Shown piece after piece: positions 11,281-50,951 of a stretch of 64,000 nucleotides of DNA; positions within the stretch are counted from its first letter, which is position 1, and every line of letters begins with the position of its first letter. The DNA comes from a virus: positions 49,369-113,368 of the IMG/VR virus record IMGVR_UViG_3300046328_000321. The stretch is one strand, 5' to 3'. The notes beneath the pieces were generated by a model that saw nothing but the letters and a program-made list of their open reading frames with translations, ran no database searches and was not told where the DNA came from. The translations under genes were made by a program, and so were the position numbers.

Positions 11281-11511
11281 ATGTTCATCGTTTTCGATAT
11301 TCTTTATAAAAGTAATGGTGTTGAACGAATCGAAATGGCTGTATCTTCAGCTAAAGAAGCTGTGACAACTATCTGCTTACTATATGATCATCCCAGGGTC
11401 AAGGCTTTCAAAATGAGTCAATTTAGCCCTTCTGATTTGGGTATGGGTCCGAACGAAAATTATGAAAAATATCGTAAAGATAGTTTCACACAGCAAGACT
11501 ATCGAGATTAA
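11281..11511 (+). CDS. Hypothetical protein
   Basis: Operonic spacing. Confidence 0.55.
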   Translation: MFIVFDILYKSNGVERIEMAVSSAKEAVTTICLLYDHPRVKAFKMSQFSPSDLGMGPNENYEKYRKDSFTQQDYRD

Positions 11512-11523
11512 AAGAAAAATAAC

Positions 11524-11982
11524 ATGGAAAACGTTTTGAGAATGTACAAACAGCAACTTGATGAAATCATCCGGGAAGCTGAAAGCGACGGTGTGGTTCT
11601 GACCATTGAGTTGGTCAGCAAAAAGCCATTAGCTATGGGTAATCACCGTATGGTTTCGTTTGTTCGTGAAAAACGAAAATTAGCCACAGCGAATTCTGAG
11701 ATGCATAAAGCATTAGATGAATCTGTTAAACAGGCTGGTAGTGTTTTAGCCGGTGATTCTGTTAAAGAACCCCCGTTTAAAATTTCCAAGTCCTCTATCG
11801 ATCTGTATAGATGTGTATATCCCAGCAACCCCGCACTTCGTTTGGGTCAAACTTTTCACCAGTATTTCAAACTGGAAAAAATCACCAATCCCGAAGCTAA
11901 GGTACTTGCCGATCGTATTTACAACGCTGACGAGGTTGAGATCAAAGATTTGATTGACTACATCACAGATTGGAGCAATTGA
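11524..11982 (+). CDS. Hypothetical protein
   Basis: Operonic; C-terminal P.LRLGQ.F motif seen in small phage proteins. Confidence 0.55.
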   Translation: MENVLRMYKQQLDEIIREAESDGVVLTIELVSKKPLAMGNHRMVSFVREKRKLATANSEMHKALDESVKQAGSVLAGDSVKEPPFKISKSSIDLYRCVYPSNPALRLGQTFHQYFKLEKITNPEAKVLADRIYNADEVEIKDLIDYITDWSN

Positions 11983-12218
11983 TGATTCCGAAAAGCAGGA
12001 TCGCTGATGCGTGGAACAGATTCTTCAACATTCCACCCTTTAAAGACTATAAAGTCAAAGCCAGCAGTGAAGAAGAGCGTACGGCCATTTCACAAACTGT
12101 GGATCAAAAGAAACTTGCTTGCGACTACGACAAAATAGCCATGTCAGACAAGTGTACTTTCTATCTCACAGATGGTGAAGTGGTTTGCGCTACATGTGGC
12201 AAGACTATCAGAGTCTAA
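11970..12218 (+). CDS. Hypothetical protein with CxxC
   Basis: Operonic; followed by a terminator hairpin. Confidence 0.5.
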   Translation: MEQLMIPKSRIADAWNRFFNIPPFKDYKVKASSEEERTAISQTVDQKKLACDYDKIAMSDKCTFYLTDGEVVCATCGKTIRV

Positions 12219-12269
12219 AGAAGAACAGGCCGAAGCCTGTTCTTCTTTTTCATTTAAATAAGGTAACAC

Positions 12270-12596
12270 ATGCATACGTATGAAGAATTGATGGCCTGTG
12301 ACAAGTTCACTTTGGTTGAATACATCAAAGATCTGGAAACAGAACTTGAAGGATTAAGCACCAGAATAGGTCCTCTTATCATGTCAAAAGAATCTTACGA
12401 TAGAGTAGAGGTGGTGTTCCCTGACAATGTTTACAAACCTTTTGAAGAAATCATAGGTAAAGCTGTTTGGGAAATGCAAAATTTGTTACAACTGCGTGAA
12501 GCAGCAGCTGTGTCAGGAGCCATGCGTTGGTCTTGGTCCCAAGAAGCTGGTATTGTTTCCGATAATCCATCAGTTAAAAAGTTTCGTTATGTCTAA
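12270..12596 (+). CDS. Hypothetical protein
   Basis: AAGGT RBS, ORF track. Confidence 0.55.
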   Translation: MHTYEELMACDKFTLVEYIKDLETELEGLSTRIGPLIMSKESYDRVEVVFPDNVYKPFEEIIGKAVWEMQNLLQLREAAAVSGAMRWSWSQEAGIVSDNPSVKKFRYV

Positions 12597-14191: not shown

Positions 14192-14521
14192 GGCCCGCTG
14201 ATGAAATTGGTAGACATAACGGAAAACCAGAAAGTTAGTCCGCCTTTACTAGTAATAGTAAAGTAAACTGTGGGTGAACTCAGGAGAATCTAAAGCGCAA
14301 GCCATGATAATCGTGAGCCAAGCTAGAAGTACACTTCTAGAAGGTGCAGAGACTACTGGAAAGGTAAAGTCCTTTTAATAACCAGCTAGAGCGCCCACTA
14401 CCGTAATAGAATTTCTATCGGTAAAGAGATAGTCCATGTCCATTGGAAACTTTGGAACACATGCTTAAAATCCGTCGCTTCCGAAAGGAGCATTCCGGTT
14501 CGATTCCGGAGCGGGCCACCA
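14192..14521 (+). tRNA. trnL: tRNA-Leu(UAA) interrupted by a group I intron
   Basis: Joining 14192-14223 to 14464-14521 gives a cloverleaf: acceptor GGCCCGC/GCGGGCC, anticodon arm ACGGA-CTTAAAA-TCCGT, long variable arm, TTCGATT loop, CCA. Confidence 0.88.
14224..14463 (+). ncRNA. ORF-less group I intron (IC3/trnL-like core), 240 nt
   Basis: P AACTCAGGAGAA, Q AATCGTGAGCC, R GTGCAGAGACT, S AAGAGATAGTCC; P3 GTGGGTG/CGCCCAC; terminal G at 14463. Confidence 0.85.
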
Positions 14522-14639: not shown

Positions 14640-14716
14640 AGGTCTGTAACTCAATAGGATAGAGTAACTCCCTTCTAAGGAGTAAGTTGCTGGTTCGAAT
14701 CCAGTCAGACCTACCA
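14640..14716 (+). tRNA. trnR: tRNA-Arg(UCU)
   Basis: AGGTCTG/CAGACCT acceptor, ACTCC-CTTCTAA-GGAGT arm, TTCGAAT loop, CCA. Confidence 0.93.
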
Positions 14717-14732
14717 TTTATTAATAAATAAC

Positions 14733-15398
14733 GCCGGTTTAACTCAGTTGGTAGAGTAATCGCCTTAAAAAAAAAATAATGTTTAAAAGGATTGATTATG
14801 TATAAAAATCAAAAGAGAAGATTAGATACTAACGGTTATATAATAGTTCACTGTCCAGAACACCCAAAAGCAATGAAGAACGGGAGTTTTGAAGGATATG
14901 TTTACGAACATGTTTTGATGGCAGAAGAAATTTTGGATAGATCTGTTAAAGAAGGTGAAGTAGTTCACCATCTTGATGAAAATAAAAGTAATAATTCCCC
15001 TGATAATTTATTGATTTTATCAAACCCAATGCATGTTAAACTTCATGGTTGGTTAAACAAACATGAAATAAAACCTAAAGAAAAACAAGAAGAGCGAATC
15101 AGATTAGGTTGTATCAGATGTAAAACATGTGAAAAACCAATTTTACCTAATTTAATATACTGTTCTCCTCAGTGCACATTCTTTGATAAAAGAAAATATG
15201 ATCATCCGAATAAAGAAACTTTGACTCAAATGGTCTGGTCTGAACCTACTTCTAAAGTTGCTATGAAATTAGGTGTTTCAGACAAAGCCATAGAAAAACT
15301 TTGTAAGAAATTTGAAGTTGAAAAACCTCCCAGAGGTTATTGGATGAAAAATAAATCAAAAGTGTAAGTCGTCTGTTCGAGTCAGACAACCGGCACCA
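14733..15398 (+). pseudogene. tRNA-Thr(UGU) split at the anticodon loop by an HNH gene
   Basis: 5' half GCCGGTT...ATCGC-CTT (14733-14766); 3' half GTAA-GTC-GTCTG-TTCGAGT-CAGAC-AACCGGC-ACCA (15364-15398); 3' anticodon-stem strand missing. Confidence 0.8.
14798..15367 (+). CDS. HNH homing endonuclease with zinc finger and C-terminal HTH
   Basis: YVYEHVLMAE...VVHHLDENKSNN.PDNL; CKTC..YCSPQC; KVAMKLGVSDKAI..PPRGYW. Confidence 0.88.
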   Translation: MYKNQKRRLDTNGYIIVHCPEHPKAMKNGSFEGYVYEHVLMAEEILDRSVKEGEVVHHLDENKSNNSPDNLLILSNPMHVKLHGWLNKHEIKPKEKQEERIRLGCIRCKTCEKPILPNLIYCSPQCTFFDKRKYDHPNKETLTQMVWSEPTSKVAMKLGVSDKAIEKLCKKFEVEKPPRGYWMKNKSKV

Positions 15399-15416: not shown

Positions 15417-15493
15417 GGGTGTGAAGCTTAAGTGGTATAAGCATCGGTCTCATAAACCGGAGATAGTCGATTCGAGTTCGACGGCACCCACCA
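15417..15493 (+). tRNA. tRNA with CAU anticodon (Ile2 or Met)
   Basis: TCGGT-CTCATAA-ACCGG arm, GTCGA-TTCGAGT-TCGAC, CCA; G7-G66 mismatch and A8 are atypical. Confidence 0.8.
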
Positions 15494-26553: not shown

Positions 26554-28389
26554 ATGGCTATCATTCACGACGACAAAATCACCACCTCTGCTCCTAAGGT
26601 ACAAGACCAGCATGTTAATACCAACACTGCTGCCGTACAGCGTAATAGCTGGAACTTTGGTTCCGGTGGTAATATTTTTGCGGCACCTATTGGTCGCAGT
26701 ATCGGTTCAGAAGTTTACAACGAGCTGAAAGGTTCGCTGATTGAGATTTATAAGAATGCTCAAAGTGATGCGTCTATCTCCATCTTGGACATGGATAATC
26801 AAAACGAAAGTGCTCTTGCATTTTCATGTCTGATTGTTGCCATGCGGTTGAAGAACGTCCCCAATAAGGTTGCATATCACATTCTGATGTTGGAAGCTAC
26901 CGGTGAACGTCCAAATCCAGTAATCCAATATAATGGATCTAAGCAGATTGAACTACATCGTACTGCCGGCGATGCGATCGATGATATCCTTATTGGTAAG
27001 GCAAAGAGTATTGTTCAACGTGCATTTCCTTCTCATGAAACCCATTATACCGACACCACTGTCGTACCAGCGGGTTTCAATATGAAGGACAAAGCGGCTG
27101 TATACAAGTTGGCGTTGAATGCTGGTCTAGCCAACGGTACCGAATTGGAAACTTCTTCCAACACGTTCCAGGATCTGAATGTGAGTCAGATTCCCCAAGG
27201 TCAGCAATTGGTAGTGAACATGACCTTCGGGTCCACACCCATCGCCGATGATGTCGGTAACCTGATGCGTTCTGACTTCCAATTGAGCTTTGCTGCACAA
27301 AACAGTAAAGCTCAAAACAATCAGTCGTTGAACAGTGGGGGTCGTGAGACTCGTATTGCTGACGTGGCTGGTTTTGTGGAAATGCTTTGGGCACCTGTGG
27401 AACCCATGGTCAATCCATACATGCCTGTGCAACAACGACAGACACAGAAATTTGCTGCTCGTTCTGTCATCACCAGCATGACTTCTACACACAGCTATAC
27501 TCCTGGATCTATGCTGTTGGCTGTGGCTATGTTGGACGCTTTGGCTCTCCATAATAACTATTACCAAGTCTTCCGTCCCTCTATGACGAAAGATCTGGAT
27601 ATTCGTGATGTGGGTGCCCTGAATATTGAAGGTAACTACGATAACAACCCAACCGGTGTGTCGTCTGTACTGGATACCAAGTCCTCCAGCTTCTCTCATG
27701 AGAACCTGGGTATGTTCTTGAATGCTTTAGTGCGTCCTGGTATGTTGGTGGCTATCGATTGTCCAGTCGGCGGTGCTCAATCTTGGTATACAGGTCTGTA
27801 CGATGCAGCTTCCACTCGTGGTGGTTCTGCCTATGACATCTTATACACAGCTGCGCAAGAACTGACGAATGGTAACTTTGCTCGTTTGTTCCCCAAGGGT
27901 GCACAGATGTTCTTGGATGCGGGTAATCGTATTCATACGGGTATCTATACTGATCGCCAAGGTGCTCAGCGTGATATTCGAGATATCGACTATCTTGCAG
28001 CAGCAAACATTCTGGGTGCTAATAACGTGCAAGCGTTGCGTCAGTACACTGAAACATTCTGGAATCAGAACATCAGCTTGGCTGAGCGTTTGTCGGATCG
28101 TAAGCGTATGATTTCCAGCATGACCAACGAGACTGCTACTTTTACCGGGTATGCAAATCGAGTTACTTTTTCTGGTACTTTCATCGAAGCACTACGTAAA
28201 GGTATCCAGGCATGTAACATGAATGTACGGATCAACAGTCCGATGAGCGGTGCAGATTTCAACGCTCAACGCGGCGTTGCAACATTTGCTAACGCAGGTC
28301 TGATTGTACCTACCGGTTCGTTCATGGGTTTTGGCATTGCTCCTCAACACATGCAAAACATGATGCACATGGGTGGTTACCGCTATTAA
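26554..28389 (+). CDS. chmA: Chimallin, phage nuclear shell protein
   Basis: 611 aa immediately upstream of nvRNAP beta'; RI..G.Y.D..G..RDIRDIDYLA motif; highly expressed codon style; strong terminator. Confidence 0.88.
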   Translation: MAIIHDDKITTSAPKVQDQHVNTNTAAVQRNSWNFGSGGNIFAAPIGRSIGSEVYNELKGSLIEIYKNAQSDASISILDMDNQNESALAFSCLIVAMRLKNVPNKVAYHILMLEATGERPNPVIQYNGSKQIELHRTAGDAIDDILIGKAKSIVQRAFPSHETHYTDTTVVPAGFNMKDKAAVYKLALNAGLANGTELETSSNTFQDLNVSQIPQGQQLVVNMTFGSTPIADDVGNLMRSDFQLSFAAQNSKAQNNQSLNSGGRETRIADVAGFVEMLWAPVEPMVNPYMPVQQRQTQKFAARSVITSMTSTHSYTPGSMLLAVAMLDALALHNNYYQVFRPSMTKDLDIRDVGALNIEGNYDNNPTGVSSVLDTKSSSFSHENLGMFLNALVRPGMLVAIDCPVGGAQSWYTGLYDAASTRGGSAYDILYTAAQELTNGNFARLFPKGAQMFLDAGNRIHTGIYTDRQGAQRDIRDIDYLAAANILGANNVQALRQYTETFWNQNISLAERLSDRKRMISSMTNETATFTGYANRVTFSGTFIEALRKGIQACNMNVRINSPMSGADFNAQRGVATFANAGLIVPTGSFMGFGIAPQHMQNMMHMGGYRY

Positions 28390-28548: not shown

Positions 28549-31380
28549 ATGCCTGTCATACAGGAAATCATTCAGTTTGATGATATGTTTCATAAACTAC
28601 ATCACACACCTACTCTTATTAACCACATAGCTTGCGCCACATTGGAAGATAGGGAGAAGGTAAAAGAAATTCTTACCACTCATCTTAACAGTGATCAGAT
28701 AAGTTTAGTACCTTCATGTCAATGCGGAGCTACTAAAGGTGAATATTCCAAGAGTATGGTTTGTCCCGTCTGTAATACAGAAGTAAAAACTTCTGTGACT
28801 ACAGATATCGAACCAGTAGTCTGGCTGAAGCAACCAGAGAGTGTGGATAAGTTGATCAGTCCTATCTTTCTGATGATGTTAATCAAAAGGTTTACCAAAT
28901 CAGGATTCTCAGTGATCGAATGGTTATGTAATACAAATTACTCTTCGACATCTAAACCTCCTGATAAAGTATTAGCTAAAATCCAGACATGTGGGATTGA
29001 ACGAGGTTATAACAACTTCGTTAGGAATTTTGATCCTATTATGGATTTGTTGTTTTCATTCATTGAGTTTGCTCCTAAAACTCAAAAGTTTGAAATGAAA
29101 CAAGAAGACAAAATAGATCATTTACAACAACTAATCAGAGATCACAGAAACGCGATCTTTAGTGAGTATTTACCCATCCCAAATAAGATCATTTTGATCT
29201 TTGACACCCAGCCATTAGGGACTTATACTGATCCTTCAGTAATGAAAGCTGTGGATGCTATTAACACAATGGTGTCCATTGATCGAGATTTCTATGATCA
29301 GAGTTCAAAAACCAAACAGAACCGTACGATCAAAGCTTTGATGTTACTTTGTGATTTTTATAACGATACCTTATTGTTAATGGCACATAAGCATGGTCAT
29401 TTCCGTAAGCACATGTTTGGTAGTAGAACCAATTTTTCTTTCCGAGCTGTAATCACATCGATTACAGCCGGTAAGAATTATGATGAGATCGAAGCTCCAT
29501 GGTGTATGGCAATCACAGCATTCCGTATTCATTTGTTGAATAAACTTTTGAAATACGGTATGGGTCATAACGAAGGGTTAGGATTTTTGTATAAACATAC
29601 GTACAAACACCATTCTCTTCTGGAAAGATTCATGCAGGAGATGATTGATGAGACCCCAATGAAAGGTATTTTCATTTGTTTGCAACGCAATTAACTATTT
29701 AGGTTGCCTTTATCAGTAATGGTAAAGTAAAATTCTCCTTAATTGACGGGAACATCCTGCTAAAAACTTGTACACCAAACTACAATAGAAATATATGTAG
29801 CGGCCAAGGTAACTACTTGGGTATGGTAAAAGAAACAAGTCTGGGATAATCCGCAGCCGAACTCTTAACCAGAAATGGAAAGAGATGGGTTCAACGACTA
29901 GTCGAAAGACGTAACTCTTAGCAAGAGTGAAACAGGAGACCCCTTTTGTATAAAAGGGTGAAGATATAGTCTGCTCTCGTATGAATAATACGAGCGGGTG
30001 TCGTAGCACACCGGGTAAAGAGAGTAAGCTGTTTAAGCTGAGCGACTTTACTGGACAATGGCCGAGTTTGTTACAAGGGTCAGCTCAACGAGTGAAAATC
30101 ACAAAGTTCAAAACTAACCCTATGGACTTGACTATAGGGATGCACATCTTAACAGTGCGTGCTAATCATTATTGGCATTTAACCAGGTAACTGGTTAAAG
30201 AATCTCTTCGAATTGCTGGAAACTCCTTAGAGTCTCATTACCACTGCGAGCTGTAAAGCAAAGCCACGGTTTAAAAAGTATGAGAATTGGACAATCAGCA
30301 GCGAAACTTCCTACGGGAAGTACGTTCAACGATCATCGGAGTTACGCCCGAGTAGAACCTCAAGCGAGGAAGAAGTGGAGAGCACCCTACTATTTATGAG
30401 GGTGAAGATATGATCTGTTCCTGTATGAAAATACAGGCGGGTGTCTTAGCACACCGAGTAAAGAGAGTAAGCTATTATAGCTGAGCGGCTTTACTGGACA
30501 ATAAGCCAAATGCTGATCAAAAGGTCCTCTTAACTTGCGAAGGTTAAGATGTATTTCCTGAATTGCTGGGAACTCTCGTTAGACTGTTGAACTAAAGCGG
30601 AGTGTGAAAACACAAACGTAAATGTTTGAAAATCAGCAGGTAGAGACAATCAGCAGCTAAGACGCTAAAGACAGTTGTGAAACTGGCTATGCGTAAAGTT
30701 CAACGACTATCCGGTAGCACGGAGTAGACCCATGAGGGTCAAAGTAGGAAACGTCTCTAGGAAGACGGTGATATAGTCTGCTCTCACATGAGAATGTGAG
30801 CGGGTGTCAAAGCACACCGGGTGAGGAATCGAAAGATGGCTTCACTGGACAAAAGGTTTGATGGTAGAGTATTGCCATCTCTAAACATTCTTAACTGCGG
30901 GAAACTCCTTAGAGCTTTGTTGACCAACCTGTGGTAGAAATACACACAGCGGCTGAACTAACTATTCAGATATGGTAAAACTAACAAAGATTGGACAATC
31001 CGCACCGAAGCTCCTAACTAAGTATATTAACATATACTTACATGGAGTGTGGCCAACGACTATCCCGTAAGGGAGTACACTCAAGCGAGTGGAAACAGAA
31101 TGTACCGAAAGGTAAAGATATAGTCTAATCAGATATGAAAGTATCTGGATCCTTAAGCAAGATCGATGAGTAGTAGCGTACTCAGGTTGGTGCTAGAGAG
31201 TTATGGTTTATGGATGCTCTCAACGTATCCATAGCTCTTGATCAGAAAATGTCAGATATGTGGTATCCACTTTCACCGGAGTTCAACATCTTCCAAATGA
31301 CAAAACCATTTCAAGTATCGGGAAACATAGCGATCCCTAAACCTAACATCGCTACCATTTCATCTTGGTTGGAAAACTAG
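28549..31380 (+). CDS. nvRNAP beta' catalytic subunit (phiKZ gp55-like), spliced, ~477 aa; exons 28549-29691, 30062-30163, 30506-30517, 30857-30865, 31213-31380
   Basis: N-terminal zinc ribbon, RKH.FG.R..FS.RAVI; splicing restores QRN-PSL and PNAD-FDG-D in frame. Confidence 0.93.
29692..30061 (+). ncRNA. Group I intron 1 of nvRNAP beta' (370 nt, ORF-less)
   Basis: P1 GCAAT/GTTGC with U.G; P AATTGACGGGAA, Q AATCCGCAGC, R GTTCAACGACTA, S AAGATATAGTCT; terminal G. Confidence 0.92.
30164..30505 (+). ncRNA. Group I intron 2 of nvRNAP beta' (342 nt, ORF-less)
   Basis: P1 GTGCT/GGCAT; AATTGCTGGAA, AATCAGCAGC, GTTCAACGATCA, AAGATATGATCT; terminal G. Confidence 0.92.
30518..30856 (+). ncRNA. Group I intron 3 of nvRNAP beta' (339 nt, ORF-less)
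   Basis: Short P1 GAT/GTC; AATTGCTGGGA, AATCAGCAGC, GTTCAACGACTA, GATATAGTCT; terminal G. Confidence 0.9.
30866..31212 (+). ncRNA. Group I intron 4 of nvRNAP beta' (347 nt, ORF-less)
   Basis: P1 GATGGT/GCCATC; P10 AGAGTATT/GATGCTCT; AACTGCGGGA, AATCCGCACC, CAACGACTA, AAGATATAGTCT; terminal G. Confidence 0.92.
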
Positions 31381-40738: not shown

Positions 40739-41242
40739 ATGAACATCTTTGTTCTGGATTTAGATCCTAAGACATCAGCAAGATATTTGTGTAATGAACA
40801 TTGCTGTAAGATGGTTGTGGAATCCGCTCAAATGTTATCTACAGCACACAGACTTAAGTCAGATGACACAGACGGACTTTACAAATTAGCTCACATCAAT
40901 CATCCATCTACTATTTGGACCAGAGAATCGGTAGAAAATTACTTGTGGCATTATGAATACTTTTGCTATATGGCAGAAGAGTATGAGGAACGTTATGGTA
41001 AGATTCATTTAACATACATGATGTTAAAGAACAGACTTCAGTTACCTCCAGAGAAAATAACGGAAACTAAAAGGACTCCGTTTACTTTGTGTATGCCGGA
41101 AATTTATAAACAGGACGATCCCGTTCAAGCTTATAGAGCTTTTTATATAGGTGAAAAACTTAAGTTTGCTCACTGGTCTTTACCATCAACAATACCATCA
41201 TGGATCATCAAACACGTAAGGAACAATCATGCAGAACAATGA
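40739..41242 (+). CDS. Pyrimidine-dimer DNA glycosylase (DenV-like)
   Basis: MNIF.LD.DP, H..KM..E.AQMLST, H.NHP...W.RES, AYR.FY motifs. Confidence 0.8.
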   Translation: MNIFVLDLDPKTSARYLCNEHCCKMVVESAQMLSTAHRLKSDDTDGLYKLAHINHPSTIWTRESVENYLWHYEYFCYMAEEYEERYGKIHLTYMMLKNRLQLPPEKITETKRTPFTLCMPEIYKQDDPVQAYRAFYIGEKLKFAHWSLPSTIPSWIIKHVRNNHAEQ

Positions 41243-43711
41243 ACTGAAACTTCAATATGTGGGTATACAAGGACTTAATTCTTACTGTATGCATAATTCA
41301 TCATCACGAGCTGTGATGTTTTCTTCTCACATTGGACAACGTCTGGTAATTGAAGGAGCTCAACAGAAACTTGTACAAACTGGGCTTGAACAAGAATTTG
41401 GTAAATATACGTTCAATGTCAAGATGCCTGAGAATGGTCGTATTGTTGCTATCTTAGACAGGTATCCTCGTGGTGTAGGTAGTAAATCTCTTAATTTCAA
41501 TCCAGAGACCTATGTCTTCTTTGAACGTGAAGACAACAAGCAAGTAGATTATATTCTCATCCCGTACAAAGCTCAGTTCCATCAGAATTTTGGTTTTAAG
41601 TACAAGATGAATAAGAAAAATATCGGAAAGCTTCAGCCAGGTGCTTATATTGCAAAAGATACTATTTTTGCAGACAGTCCTGCTGTTTCTGACAATGGTA
41701 ATTTCATGTTTGGTATCAATGCCAACATTGCCCTGATGTCCATTCCCTCAGTGGCTGAAGATGGCATTATGATCTCCAGAGACTTTCTACCTAAGTTAAA
41801 GTTCAAGATTTATGATACTCGACAAGTCAACTTTGGATCTAAACAATTTCCATTGAACCTTTATGGTACTTTGGATGAAGTAAAACCATTTCCTGAGATC
41901 GGAGATAAGATTCGAGAAGATGGTATTTTGATGGCTTTTAGAGACTTTAACACAGCTCTGTCTCCTGTTGAAATGTCTAAGATGGATTTAATGGAAGTAG
42001 ATCACACTTTTGATGAATGTGTATATGTACGAGGTGGTGTGGGTACTGTGGTTGACATTAAGATTACCAGAAACAACTCACCTATTAAGAACATGCCTGT
42101 GGAAATGTCATGTTATCTGAACCGTTACTGGGAAGCCAATCAAGCTTTTTATAAGAAAGTTATTGATTTAGAAGCCGGTCTGCGTAAAGATAACCGAATG
42201 AAATTTGGAACCACTGATATTTTAACAACATCAAAGTTTGATAAATTAGTTTATGAGGCTATGGTGCATACTAACCATAACTTCAATCAGTTTAAACAAC
42301 CTCTTCAACTCCAATCACGTAAGTCTACTGTAGACGAATACCAGATACAATTTACTATTGAATACACCATTGAACCCTGTGAAGGATTCAAATTGACTGA
42401 TAATCACGGTTTTTACTAGCCGCTTTTGACAGAGATGTCAATCGATCATTTTCCTAATTGCGGGGAACCACCTAAAGCTTCATTGACCAACTTAGTTACG
42501 AAAGTAAGTTAAGGGCTACGCTAACTACGTAGGTATGGTAAAACTAATGAAGATATATGGGCAATCCGCACCGAAGCTCCTAACTAAGTATATTAACATA
42601 TACTTACATGGAGTGTGGCCAACGACTATCCCGTAAGGGAGTAGGCTCATGAGAGTCGAAATGGAAAGCGTCCTACTGTTGAACAGAGGATGAAGATATA
42701 GTCTGTTCCTACATGAAAGTGTGGGTGGGTGTCACAGCACACCGGGTGAAGAATCGAAAGACGGCTTCACTGGACAAAAAGGGAAAAGGTGTTATTTGTA
42801 AAGTAGAAGAACCTGAGAACATGCCTGTCGATGAAAATGGCAACCGTGCCGACATCGTCATGGATGCAGCTTCTACTATCTCACGTATGAACTTAGGCAG
42901 GCTTTACGAGCAACACATGGCATCTGCCTTGCGCGACGTTACTCAAAATGTTCGCATGTTGTTTGGATTTGAACGATTGAAACCAACATCCATTAAAGCT
43001 GAGAATTTGCTAGACAGTTTTCCAATTCAAAAGATCGAAGAAGCTCATCAGTACGTGTTAGGTTTCTATAACCTTATTTCAGAAAAGCAATATAACTTTT
43101 ATTCTAAACTGACAGATCCTAAGCAAATTGCCGAGCATATCTGTGATATCATATCCGATCACGTTTATGCATATATTCCTATTGATAAACAGATCAGTAG
43201 TAAAGATATCGTGAAACGCATCGAGAATTCCATATACAAACCCGTTTATGGAAAAATTACCTATCGAGGTAATTCTGGTGAGGTCGTGCTTACTGAACGA
43301 AATGTGCGCATTGCTCCTTTATACATGATGTTATTGGAAAAAATCGCTGATGATTGGACAGCTGTAGCCACTGGTAATCTTCAGCTACATGGTTTACTGG
43401 CTCAGGTCAACAGACGTGAAAAGCATTCAAGACCTCATAGGAACACTCCTGTTCGCACCATCGGTGAAACAGAGGGACGTTTATTTGTAGGTTATTGTGG
43501 AAGAGAAGCGGTCGCTGAGATGTTGGATCGTTCAGGTAATCCTCTTGTACAAAGACACATGACTAGGAACATTCTTGAAGCCAATCGTCCAACAAATATC
43601 AATGAGATTGTAGATCGTAACTTGGTTAACTACGGTAATACCAAGTCTGTACAGATCATCAACCATATGTTTACTTGTATGGGTTTTAAAACCAAATACG
43701 TTCCAGAATGA
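41229..43711 (+). CDS. nvRNAP beta subunit (phiKZ gp71-73-like), spliced, ~703 aa; exons 41229-42410 and 42782-43711
   Basis: SSSRAVM, EDG; splicing restores KLTDNHG-GKGVIC; SRMNLG and GETE motifs. Confidence 0.92.
42411..42781 (+). ncRNA. Group I intron of nvRNAP beta (371 nt, ORF-less)
   Basis: P1 CGGT/GCCG with U.G; AATTGCGGGGAA, AATCCGCACC, CAACGACTA, AAGATATAGTCT; terminal G. Confidence 0.92.
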
Positions 43712-49205: not shown

Positions 49206-49460
49206 ATGGAACTAGTCATTCCAATGGGAGTCGCGACTCACTACGAGTCGTGGACTGACGAAGCCGGTGATGGCTTCATCCTCTGTGACAGGTCGGTCAA
49301 ATCGACCGTGGACGGTAAAGAGGTTACCGTGACAGACCGGTGGGAATCCGGTCCCTGTAACTTTGACAGTGTGCTTGAAGCCACTGTCAAAGTGGGGGGA
49401 GAGATTGTGAAAGCAATCTCTGTCGAAGCCTCAGAAGGGAGATACATTATTTCTCTCTGA
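49206..49460 (+). CDS. Hypothetical protein
   Basis: AGGAG RBS; terminator downstream. Confidence 0.6.
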   Translation: MELVIPMGVATHYESWTDEAGDGFILCDRSVKSTVDGKEVTVTDRWESGPCNFDSVLEATVKVGGEIVKAISVEASEGRYIISL

Positions 49461-49502: not shown

Positions 49503-50951
49503 TTAATTTTTTATTAAGTAAATAGGAGACAATATTTTAACAGAAGAAAAGTTTGTAATTATAGTGGGATTTATAATATATTCACCAGCAGTCTGTCCAT
49601 TTAACAAAACAGTAATAGGTACGGACATGCTCTGACCATAAGTGGTAATTACCATTATTCCACTCTCTCCCACTTTACTAAGTTCCCATTCTACAGCTAA
49701 TGTAATTTCTGTAGGCCAAATACTATTTAGAGGTTCTAACTCTATAACAGAACTATTAGATGCAGTATGCATTCCATTATTAAAAACAGCATTTGAAACA
49801 GTTTTTAATACAGGTGGCTCACTGTAAGAATTGACCATGGTAAATAAAACAGATTGAGACCATTCTGACCAATTTGATAAACTACCGCGATGTCGAATTT
49901 TTAGTTCTAAAGTTCTACCAGACTCTAAATAGTTAAAAATTTCACACACTTTTCCCGATGTTAAAAATACATTACTCAATACAGATACACTGTCCACAGA
50001 CCATTCTGTTTCCACATGTCTATCGTTAGCAGAAATTGGTTTGAACAACGATGTTTGCAATAGATCGTTAGGTAAAACATTATCACTTCCATAAACTGGA
50101 AATGTGATATCAGGTGTAAAATTAATTATACTGTTTGAAAAATTACTTGTATTAAATCTTCTGACATAAGACCAATTACTATGTCCAAAATTGATATCGC
50201 GATATCTTATTTTTAAGAAGTATTCAGCAGATTGATTTAAACCTTGAATGAGAAAGTTATTATTCAATATTGGTACATCAATTCCATAGTCCACAATGTT
50301 ATTAAATTGATTATCTGTAGAGACTTGATAATCAACACCAACAGCAGAGTACACTTTACCTTCATAACTGCCGGTGGGTAGAGTGTAAGAAACTGTAAAT
50401 TTATTATTGTGTATTACTAAGTTTTGTGTCGGATGAGAAATAGTTGCTATGGGTAAAACAGGATTACTTAATCCAACTCTTATAAGGAAATTATGATCAT
50501 TTAATTTAAAACCATAGAGACCACCTGATCCTACGATTAAAGAATTTGGAGATGTATAGGTAATGACATTATCGTTTCTAACTACAGTACCAGCTCCCAA
50601 GACCAACAGACTTAAATCATAAGAATTTTTACTATCATAGTTGGTGATAGTATACGTGGCAGAAGTTTCCACAGATAAAGAAACTGGACCTAAAATAGTT
50701 GGTCTTTGTTTTATGGACTTAGGTAAAAATACTTCAGGTATGATTCCATATTCATTTAATTGAACTGGTCCACCTGCACGATTGATTGAATTTTTATCAA
50801 TACCATTTAAATTTTGCAAAGCCGTATTGACTCTTGTGGCACTTGTACCACCAATATTTAAATTAAAAAGTCCTTCATGAGAACCTGGTGCTTTTGCATT
50901 AACTATACTTCTCATTTCGATATTCCTTAAAAGATAATTTAATCCTATCAA
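49503..50951 (-). CDS. Virion/tail protein with Ig/FnIII-like domains
   Basis: YTITNYDS, Y...IRY......S.WS motifs. Confidence 0.55.
   Translation of the reverse strand: MIGLNYLLRNIEMRSIVNAKAPGSHEGLFNLNIGGTSATRVNTALQNLNGIDKNSINRAGGPVQLNEYGIIPEVFLPKSIKQRPTILGPVSLSVETSATYTITNYDSKNSYDLSLLVLGAGTVVRNDNVITYTSPNSLIVGSGGLYGFKLNDHNFLIRVGLSNPVLPIATISHPTQNLVIHNNKFTVSYTLPTGSYEGKVYSAVGVDYQVSTDNQFNNIVDYGIDVPILNNNFLIQGLNQSAEYFLKIRYRDINFGHSNWSYVRRFNTSNFSNSIINFTPDITFPVYGSDNVLPNDLLQTSLFKPISANDRHVETEWSVDSVSVLSNVFLTSGKVCEIFNYLESGRTLELKIRHRGSLSNWSEWSQSVLFTMVNSYSEPPVLKTVSNAVFNNGMHTASNSSVIELEPLNSIWPTEITLAVEWELSKVGESGIMVITTYGQSMSVPITVLLNGQTAGEYIINPTIITNFSSVKILSPIYLIKN

Follow-up and report, generated by a model that had tools for sequence, protein, structure and literature searches.

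Four tandem group I introns and two consecutive micro-exons at the predicted catalytic loop of a jumbo phage RNA polymerase gene

Introduction

How can an active RNA polymerase be obtained from a gene in which the three catalytic aspartates of the NADFDGD loop are encoded on three different exons? The question is raised by a gene at 28549–31380 of a 64,000-nt stretch of viral DNA (positions 49,369 to 113,368 of IMG/VR record IMGVR_UViG_3300046328_000321; hereafter the window), which is part of a 113-kb record that is ~43% complete. An earlier note, made from the letters of the window alone, had proposed that four tandem group I introns at 29692–31212 break up this motif, and four separate full-length matches to the Rfam model RF00028 now place the introns at exactly these coordinates. 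The explanation that we favour, and consider highly probable from the sequence comparisons reported here, is that four splicing-competent group I introns without open reading frames (ORFs) were left by successive invasions of an intron hot spot, and that the gene would work only after four splices.

Exon and intron structure of the interrupted gene

Introns were identified here and throughout with Infernal against RF00028, which has a gathering score of 50 bits. The gene is composed of five exons and four introns:

28549–29691, plus strand: exon 1, 1143 nt, 381 aa, an open frame that ends ...CAA CGC AAT (LQRN); phrog_2987 positions 1–380
29692–30061, plus strand: intron 1, group I, 370 nt, no ORF, beginning with an in-frame TAA; RF00028 79.1 bits
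30062–30163, plus strand: exon 2, 102 nt, PSLLQGSAQRVKITKFKTNPMDLTIGMHILTVRA, encoding PSL...VRA; phrog_2987 positions 381–413
30164–30505, plus strand: intron 2, group I, 342 nt, no ORF; RF00028 87.7 bits
30506–30517, plus strand: exon 3, a 12-nt micro-exon, CCAAATGCTGAT, encoding Pro-Asn-Ala-Asp with the first catalytic Asp
30518–30856, plus strand: intron 3, group I, 339 nt, no ORF; RF00028 68.5 bits
30857–30865, plus strand: exon 4, a 9-nt micro-exon, TTTGATGGT, encoding Phe-Asp-Gly with the second catalytic Asp
30866–31212, plus strand: intron 4, group I, 347 nt, no ORF; RF00028 68.4 bits
31213–31380, plus strand: exon 5, 168 nt, encoding DALNVS...WLEN and a stop, with the third catalytic Asp; phrog_2987 positions 422–475, 7OGP_A residues 441–493

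The four matches extend over the full model (positions 1–253), which scores the conserved catalytic core (P3–P9, with the guanosine-binding P7) by both sequence and structure, with E-values of 1e-16 to 2e-22, far beyond chance. The introns are filled by the ribozyme (339–370 nt); none contains an ORF of more than 98 aa, and the one of 98 aa is antisense. Together they interrupt 123 coding nt around the Mg-binding NADFDGD loop, with the catalytic aspartates distributed over exons 3, 4 and 5, one on each, just as the earlier note had read them. All junctions are in phase 0 and the length of every exon is a multiple of 3. The exons upstream of introns end in T (AAT, GCT, GAT and GGT), while the 3' ends of introns 1–4 (...AATGG, ...ATAAG, ...AAAGG and ...TTATG) finish in a G that stands right before the next in-frame codon, so that the spliced junctions read AAT/CCG, GCT/CCA, GAT/TTT and GGT/GAT.

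Conceptual splicing, by a script that joins the exons, yields a protein of 477 aa, and only in this product does the NADFDGD loop exist (...VRAPNADFDGDALN...). Through ...RNPSLLQGSAQ...VRAPNADFDGDALN... it aligns without a gap to the uninterrupted proteins of Burkholderia phage FLC9, Bacillus phage AgentSmith and Ralstonia phage FLC4-3B, an alignment which, together with direct reading of the codons, upholds the two micro-exons (PNAD and FDG) that had been proposed. In the profile of PHROG 2987, exactly 8 positions (414–421), corresponding to A+PNAD+FDG, separate the match of exon 2 from that of exon 5, and 41 residues of 7OGP_A lie between the parts aligned to exon 1 and to exon 5, a number that equals 34+4+3.

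Identity of the gene and its phage

The gene that adjoins the interrupted one is:

26554–28389, plus strand: gene for chimallin, the phage nuclear shell protein (Pfam PF25677, Chimallin_Phikzvirus, E 5.9e-30)

As chimallin is encoded in the window, the source is an uncultured nucleus-forming jumbo phage (a chimallivirus). Since the interrupted gene lies directly downstream of chimallin, we assign it as the beta'-N subunit of the non-virion RNA polymerase (nvRNAP), the counterpart of phiKZ gp55 (PHROG 2987); the order of chimallin followed by this RNA polymerase (RNAP) gene also occurs in phiKZ (gp54 shell, gp55), in Goslar and in FLC9. Matches to phrog_2987, “RNA polymerase beta subunit”, were obtained with exon 1 (E 3.9e-103), exon 2 (1.7e-6) and exon 5 (1.4e-6), and exon 1 matches residues 52–399 of the phiKZ nvRNAP beta'-N chain, PDB 7OGP chain A (“PHIKZ055/PHIKZ056.1”), with E 6.6e-50; a Pfam search of the exons gave no useful match. 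The virion-type paralogue of the beta'-N gene belongs to a different family, PHROG 2986. Among GenBank phages, a search for near-identical DNA gave only a 42-nt intron-core match to unrelated phages, and thus no close cultured relative was found.

Pairing at the splice sites

At all four 5' splice sites a U.G pair can be drawn, and the junction signature given in the earlier note (phase 0, exons ending in U with a U.G pair in P1, introns ending in G) holds throughout. For intron 1, P1 is formed by exon GCAAU with the guide GUUGC (29703–29707), and for intron 2 by exon GUGCU with GGCAU (30174–30178), extended by three intron pairs. The P1 of intron 3 is short, consisting of exon GAU with GUC (30524–30526) plus one intron-side pair, C1-G6, and a P10 is possible between AAA of its loop and UUU of exon 4. 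Intron 4 has exon GAUGGU paired with the guide GCCAUC (30874–30879) and an 8-bp P10 between AGAGUAUU (30866–30873) and the first 8 nt of exon 5, GAUGCUCU. Exon 4 is thereby split exactly into 3 nt that can pair in the P10 of intron 3 and 6 nt that pair in the P1 of intron 4.

Conservation of the layout in close relatives

An independent metagenome contig, L089, whose protein is 80% identical, carries all four introns at the same bases (RF00028 65.7–84.5 bits), and its micro-exons are identical to those of the window at 21/21 nt. Elsewhere in the gene, the codons of conserved residues are identical between the two in 45% of cases; as seven identical codons of seven would occur by chance with P ~0.003, the micro-exons point to an extra constraint on their bases (P1/P10 pairing) or to recent conversion. 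We also considered that the whole might be a single composite intron, removed in one event like some fungal twintrons. Such an event would delete PNADFDG, and this reading was rejected because the 21 nt are kept at every base and encode exactly the residues that would be missing.

A second relative, L004 (the contig L005 is identical; 77% protein identity to the window), has introns at sites 2 and 4 only. It reads micro-exons 3 and 4 without interruption, PNADFDG, as ccaaatgctgattttgacggt, and thus fixes both boundaries of intron 3. Sites 1 and 3, filled in the window and in L089, are empty in L004 and so show presence/absence polymorphism. Its intron at site 2 is 1991 nt long and holds an ORF for a 532-aa HNH endonuclease (phrog_59, E 8.5e-15), a protein with no match in the window's 113-kb record. 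The intron-less sequence of site 2 reads …GTGCGTGCT/CCAAAT…, and in the more distant L006 (40% identity) none of the four introns is present and the same codons are joined.

Exon and guide sequences change together between these relatives. For intron 1, GCAAU/GUUGC in the window corresponds to GAAAU/GUUUC in L089, and for intron 4, GAUGGU/GCCAUC corresponds to GACGGU/GCCGUC in L004, where exon 4 is TTTGACGGT and the intron guide has changed to match (alignment columns 6/21), while a U-A pair of P10 has become C-G. Compensatory changes were counted at 20/107 predicted pairs of intron 4 (three sequences, the exon-guide pair included), at 33/91 in the family of intron 3 (three related introns) and at 10/87 in intron 2.

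The interrupted gene is under strong purifying selection. Between the window and L089, the proportions of non-synonymous and synonymous differences (pN and pS) are 0.12 and 0.82 for the whole gene, with synonymous sites saturated, and 0.05 and 0.79 for exons 2–5. The comparison of L089 with L004 gives a pS of 0.225 for exons 2–5 vs 0.73 for the whole gene, exon 1 having diverged, and over L089:5962-7312 and L004:5140-7764 introns 2 and 4 are 98% and 96% identical while introns 1, 3 and the HNH gene differ in presence. This tract of low divergence is one of recent recombination or homing, and is of the kind expected after homing.

These data also bear on whether the tandem layout could be an assembly artefact, a repeat-induced chimera of similar introns. 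The sequence is indeed a metagenome assembly, and the introns have similar stretches in common. However, the four are just 54–61% identical to each other, each junction restores exactly the expected codons, and introns 2 and 4 recur at the same bases in two independently assembled relatives, one of which has all four. On these grounds the artefact was rejected, and we attach next to no probability to it.

Related introns elsewhere in the record

The mutual identity of the four introns (paralogues) is well below the 79–82% found between orthologues. When gaps are tolerated, the orthologues of introns 2 and 4 in L089 and L004 reach 81–85% against a background of ~70%; taking both measures together, the values are 79–81% for intron 2 and 82–85% for intron 4. 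The 3' ends of introns 1–3 are nearly identical, and an intron of the other beta' gene matches intron 3 at 79% identity. An intron in the beta gene (42411–42781) has long stretches in common with introns 3 and 4, being nearly identical to intron 4 in the P5-P6 region and to intron 3 at its 3' end, so that the introns are mosaics, with modules common to several genes.

Nine RF00028 matches were found in the 113-kb record, eight of them in RNA polymerase subunit genes, including the four in the beta'-N gene described above. The others are located as follows:

G000:C1:9920-12489 (locus L087:921-3490), ~37 kb upstream and outside the window: the other beta'-N paralogue, PHROG 2986, with two introns
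Window 41229–43711: RNA polymerase beta gene, PHROG 3295, split ...TDNHG/GKGVICK... by the group I intron at ~42411–42781 (RF00028 76.4 bits)
G000:C1:15897-16186 (L087:6898-7187): RF00028 intron, 86.3 bits, between two ORFs that cover positions 4–1050 and 1052–1422 of PHROG 3148, “RNA polymerase beta subunit”
Window 14208–14456: ninth RF00028 match, 62.4 bits, in a tRNA gene region (tRNAs at 14640–14713 and 15417–15490)

The PHROG 2986 paralogue has a micro-exon of its own: ...HLGRLGAD is followed by an intron (11435–11960), by TTCGAT (FD, a 6-nt micro-exon), by a second intron (11967–12330) and by GDTMSL.... The two introns score 76.5 and 63.9 bits, and profile positions 485–486 correspond to exactly the two missing residues. 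Near the intron of the tRNA region lies a free-standing HNH_3 endonuclease gene (34.6 bits, window ~14903–15025); no other endonuclease domain was found in the record.

A recurrent site of intron insertion

With a profile of the beta'-N protein, 80 relatives were collected from IMG/VR. The motif is in one open frame in 52 of them, while the remaining 28 (35%) are broken within ~45 codons. Break points, placed with a hidden Markov model of the 52 intact proteins, fall repeatedly at the same positions:

Site 1, after QRN: L011, L012, L032, L089 and the window
Site 2, before [P/L/F]NAD: L007/8, L014, L068 and the window
phiKZ site, N/A: phiKZ, L052 and L071
Site 3, NAD/FDG: L012, L013, L021, L045/46, L058, L063 and the window
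Site 4, FDG/D: L007/8, L014, L025, L030, L034, L059, L083 and the window

Matches to RF00028 confirm introns in most of the broken loci, with three each in L027, L032 and L068. Insertions of 1.2–1.7 kb occur at the same sites in L013, L027 and L030. A 12-nt micro-exon, GAT TTY GAC GGT (DFDG), is present in L027, L032, L067 and L082, an FDG micro-exon in L063, and micro-exons of 11 and 12 nt in L068. The ~45 codons around the NADFDGD motif of the chimallivirus nvRNAP are thus a recurrent hot spot for introns. Four introns were found only in the window and L089, and at most three were detected in the 80 surveyed relatives. The earlier note had called the arrangement extreme for a phage; it is the densest case found, and in this the description stands, but it is only the top of a continuum that includes 28 interrupted relatives, three of them with three introns, and L089 with four.

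A separate observation concerns L014 (5700–6160) and L063 (5700–6200). In these, no junction that keeps the frame open combines an upstream exon ending in U with an intron ending in G (TTA, T ambiguity). Either splice sites are non-canonical in these two loci, or the boundaries are unlike the simple reading.

Does the occupied hot spot serve the phage? The cluster might be an adaptive device and not merely selfish DNA, and in one version of this idea occupied sites would resist the homing endonucleases of co-infecting chimalliviruses, which cut empty sites. Endonuclease-bearing or long introns do occur at the same sites in L004 (site 2), in phiKZ gp56, in Goslar_00186 and in L013, L027 and L030, and the endonuclease of the PhiPA3 intron is harmful to intron-less phiKZ (PMC11620839). 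According to the same paper, homing-endonuclease introns at active-site codons of chimallivirus RNAP genes act in competition between phages. The concentration of the introns of the record in RNA polymerase subunit genes is also in line with such a device. However, occupancy of a hot spot is equally expected under purely selfish homing, and 52 of the 80 relatives do without any intron here. We therefore regard an adaptive device as unlikely.

Splicing and origin of the cluster

According to the favoured explanation of four successive invasions, each ribozyme would fold on the primary transcript and select its 5' splice site by the U.G pair in P1, and each intron would leave by the two guanosine-dependent transesterifications usual for this class. 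All four removals would be needed to obtain the 477-aa protein with an intact catalytic loop. As neighbouring ribozymes would share the 12-nt and 9-nt micro-exons, removal is probably sequential rather than simultaneous. The cluster most likely originated when endonuclease-bearing introns entered, one after another and by homing or recombination, the DNA that is most conserved in this gene. Their endonuclease genes would later have been lost, and the remaining splicing-competent introns could not be lost imprecisely without killing the polymerase. An intron-encoded homing endonuclease gene, the mark of a mobile intron, is found in none of the four introns of the window.

Several points weigh against this explanation. 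For all four introns, splicing is inferred from sequence, from selection and from comparison, and ONT-cappable-seq, in the conditions that were tested, saw no splicing of the lone intron of phiKZ gp55 (PMC10914365). In intron 3, P1 contains just three pairs with the exon, and for intron 2 there is no convincing P10. Intron 1 of the window is 70% identical to that of L089, no closer than paralogous introns; this may mean that the site was invaded on two occasions or that one intron was replaced by another. As this identity is at background level, the four-intron state common to the window and L089 need not go back to shared ancestry and may have been assembled by transfer. Finally, as the record is ~43% complete, a second intact copy of the gene may lie outside the 113 kb.

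The weak pairing of introns 2 and 3, the lower scores of introns 3 and 4 (~68 bits) and the incompleteness of the record might also be taken to mean that the gene is decaying or non-functional, with at least one intron that no longer splices and another copy in the unsampled part of the genome. Against this stand exons that are all open and colinear with their homologues, strong purifying selection which includes exons 2–5, the retention of this layout in L089, where the micro-exons are unchanged in all their bases, and the compensatory changes that preserve the intron helices. An intact second copy of the subunit, the observation that the earlier note had set against its own proposal, was not found in the 113-kb record (~43% complete), nor was any second gp55-type gene. 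The pseudogene reading was rejected for these reasons, and it has in our opinion very little chance of being correct.

The second version of an adaptive role concerns expression: a need for four splices in order, or skipping of the 102-nt, 12-nt or 9-nt exons in frame, would limit or time the production of active nvRNAP. As all exon lengths are multiples of 3, exon skipping would stay in frame, and near-identical 3' ends, as in introns 1–3, are the situation in which Twort and SIOphi are reported to skip exons (PMC3073962, PMC11878797). On the other hand, the skipped products would be without catalytic residues, and therefore waste or poison. Among the roles suggested for the cluster, only the protection of occupied sites from homing endonucleases has comparative support, which is indirect; a timer and exon skipping are possible from the Twort and SIOphi precedent and the exon lengths only. 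Protection from CRISPR, which had also been suggested, is a weak idea, since viral DNA is already shielded inside the phage nucleus and the mRNA is contiguous once spliced.

A more far-reaching conjecture, which we offer tentatively and consider doubtful, is that the RNAP active-site codons of nucleus-forming phages are a battleground of intron endonucleases, where ORF-less introns stacked at every hot spot would be selected as layered immunity to the endonucleases of rivals. As a side effect, ordered and rate-limiting splicing of micro-exons of 6–12 nt would gate the time at which active polymerase appears. Stacking would be tolerated because transcription is kept apart from translation by the phage nucleus.

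Novelty and significance

It is well known that group I introns occur in active-site codons of phage genes, including this very gene, and three-intron genes (PMC11878797), intron-dense phage genomes (PMC7886860, PMC12880540) and organellar mini-exons (PMC12308204) have been published. Against this background the gene of the window is the densest case so far seen: it has four introns and two micro-exons in a row, a layout that recurs in a second contig, and its paralogue has the 6-nt micro-exon. In the literature available to us, our search found no paper that describes a phage RNA polymerase loop with tandem introns and micro-exons, nothing on micro-exons between group I introns of phages, and nothing on chimallivirus introns beyond PhiPA3 and phiKZ.

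The case illustrates the extent of the self-splicing intron load in an essential viral gene, two of the three exons that carry an aspartate being shorter than the usual substrate helices of the ribozyme combined. It offers a natural test bed for the sharing of a 9-nt exon by adjacent group I ribozymes, for an enforced order of splicing and for inactive products skipped in frame. The hot spot, with 35% of 80 environmental relatives interrupted, ties in with intron endonucleases as weapons between co-infecting chimalliviruses. Gene callers will call such a subunit truncated and without an active site, and annotation pipelines for jumbo phages therefore need intron-aware models.

Comparison with known systems

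The statement of the earlier note that single introns can occur in phiKZ-like nvRNAP genes is confirmed by phiKZ and by Escherichia phage Goslar. In phiKZ (NC_004629, 47923–50761), gp55 stops at ...APN and is followed by gp56 (HNH) and by an RF00028 core of 75.6 bits (~50168–50489); the next exon, which starts GCTGATTTTGACGGCGAT..., reads ADFDGDQLN... and includes the annotated gp56.1. The solved chain 7OGP_A is a fusion of gp55 and gp56.1. In the public record, gp55, gp56 and gp56.1 are separate coding sequences, and the intron core and the true start of exon 2 are unannotated. As in the window, the same gene adjoins the shell gene and the intron lies within the same motif (APN/ADFDGD). In contrast, phiKZ has a single intron of ~1.4 kb with an endonuclease gene, at the N/A site which is empty in the window, and it has no micro-exons, all three aspartates being on one exon.

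Goslar is a cultured chimallivirus with an annotated Intron_gpI (Goslar_00187) in the same gene (Goslar_00188) by chimallin. It differs in having one annotated intron with an HNH-NUMOD1 gene (Goslar_00186), whereas the window has four ORF-less introns and two consecutive micro-exons. In PhiPA3, a mobile group I intron is located at the catalytic aspartates of the vRNAP beta subunit gene, gp210 (Birkholz et al. 2024, PMC11620839). Here too a group I intron occupies the conserved catalytic aspartates of a chimallivirus RNAP gene, but the subunit is a different one, the intron is single and its HNH endonuclease is active, while the introns of the window are without an endonuclease.

Outside the chimalliviruses, a single phage gene can hold several related group I introns, as in orf142 of Staphylococcus phage Twort, with three introns and documented exon skipping (PMC3073962, PMC11878797), and in the DNA polymerase and terminase genes of Bastillevirinae, with up to three introns per gene and exon skipping in SIOphi (PMC11878797). 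These are other genes, the maximum reported per gene is three introns, and in the literature available to us no exons of 9–12 nt were found described. For the crAss-like Zeta group and the Jug phages, up to 14 group I introns per genome, a major capsid protein (MCP) gene broken into five fragments and, in Jug, a mean of 18.5 introns per genome have been described, with splicing supported by metatranscriptomes (PMC7886860, PMC12880540). They resemble the window in having many group I introns in core genes; however, they are not chimalliviruses, their introns are spread along genes and not set within one catalytic loop, and micro-exons are not described.

In fungal mitochondria, neighbouring self-splicing introns are parted by exons of 18 nt (group I) or 1 nt (group II), and their stepwise “ratchet” removal is backed by RNA-seq (PMC12308204). 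Those introns reside in organelle genomes, belong to other intron lineages and mostly bear endonucleases, so that their resemblance to the window is one of possible working, and not of descent.

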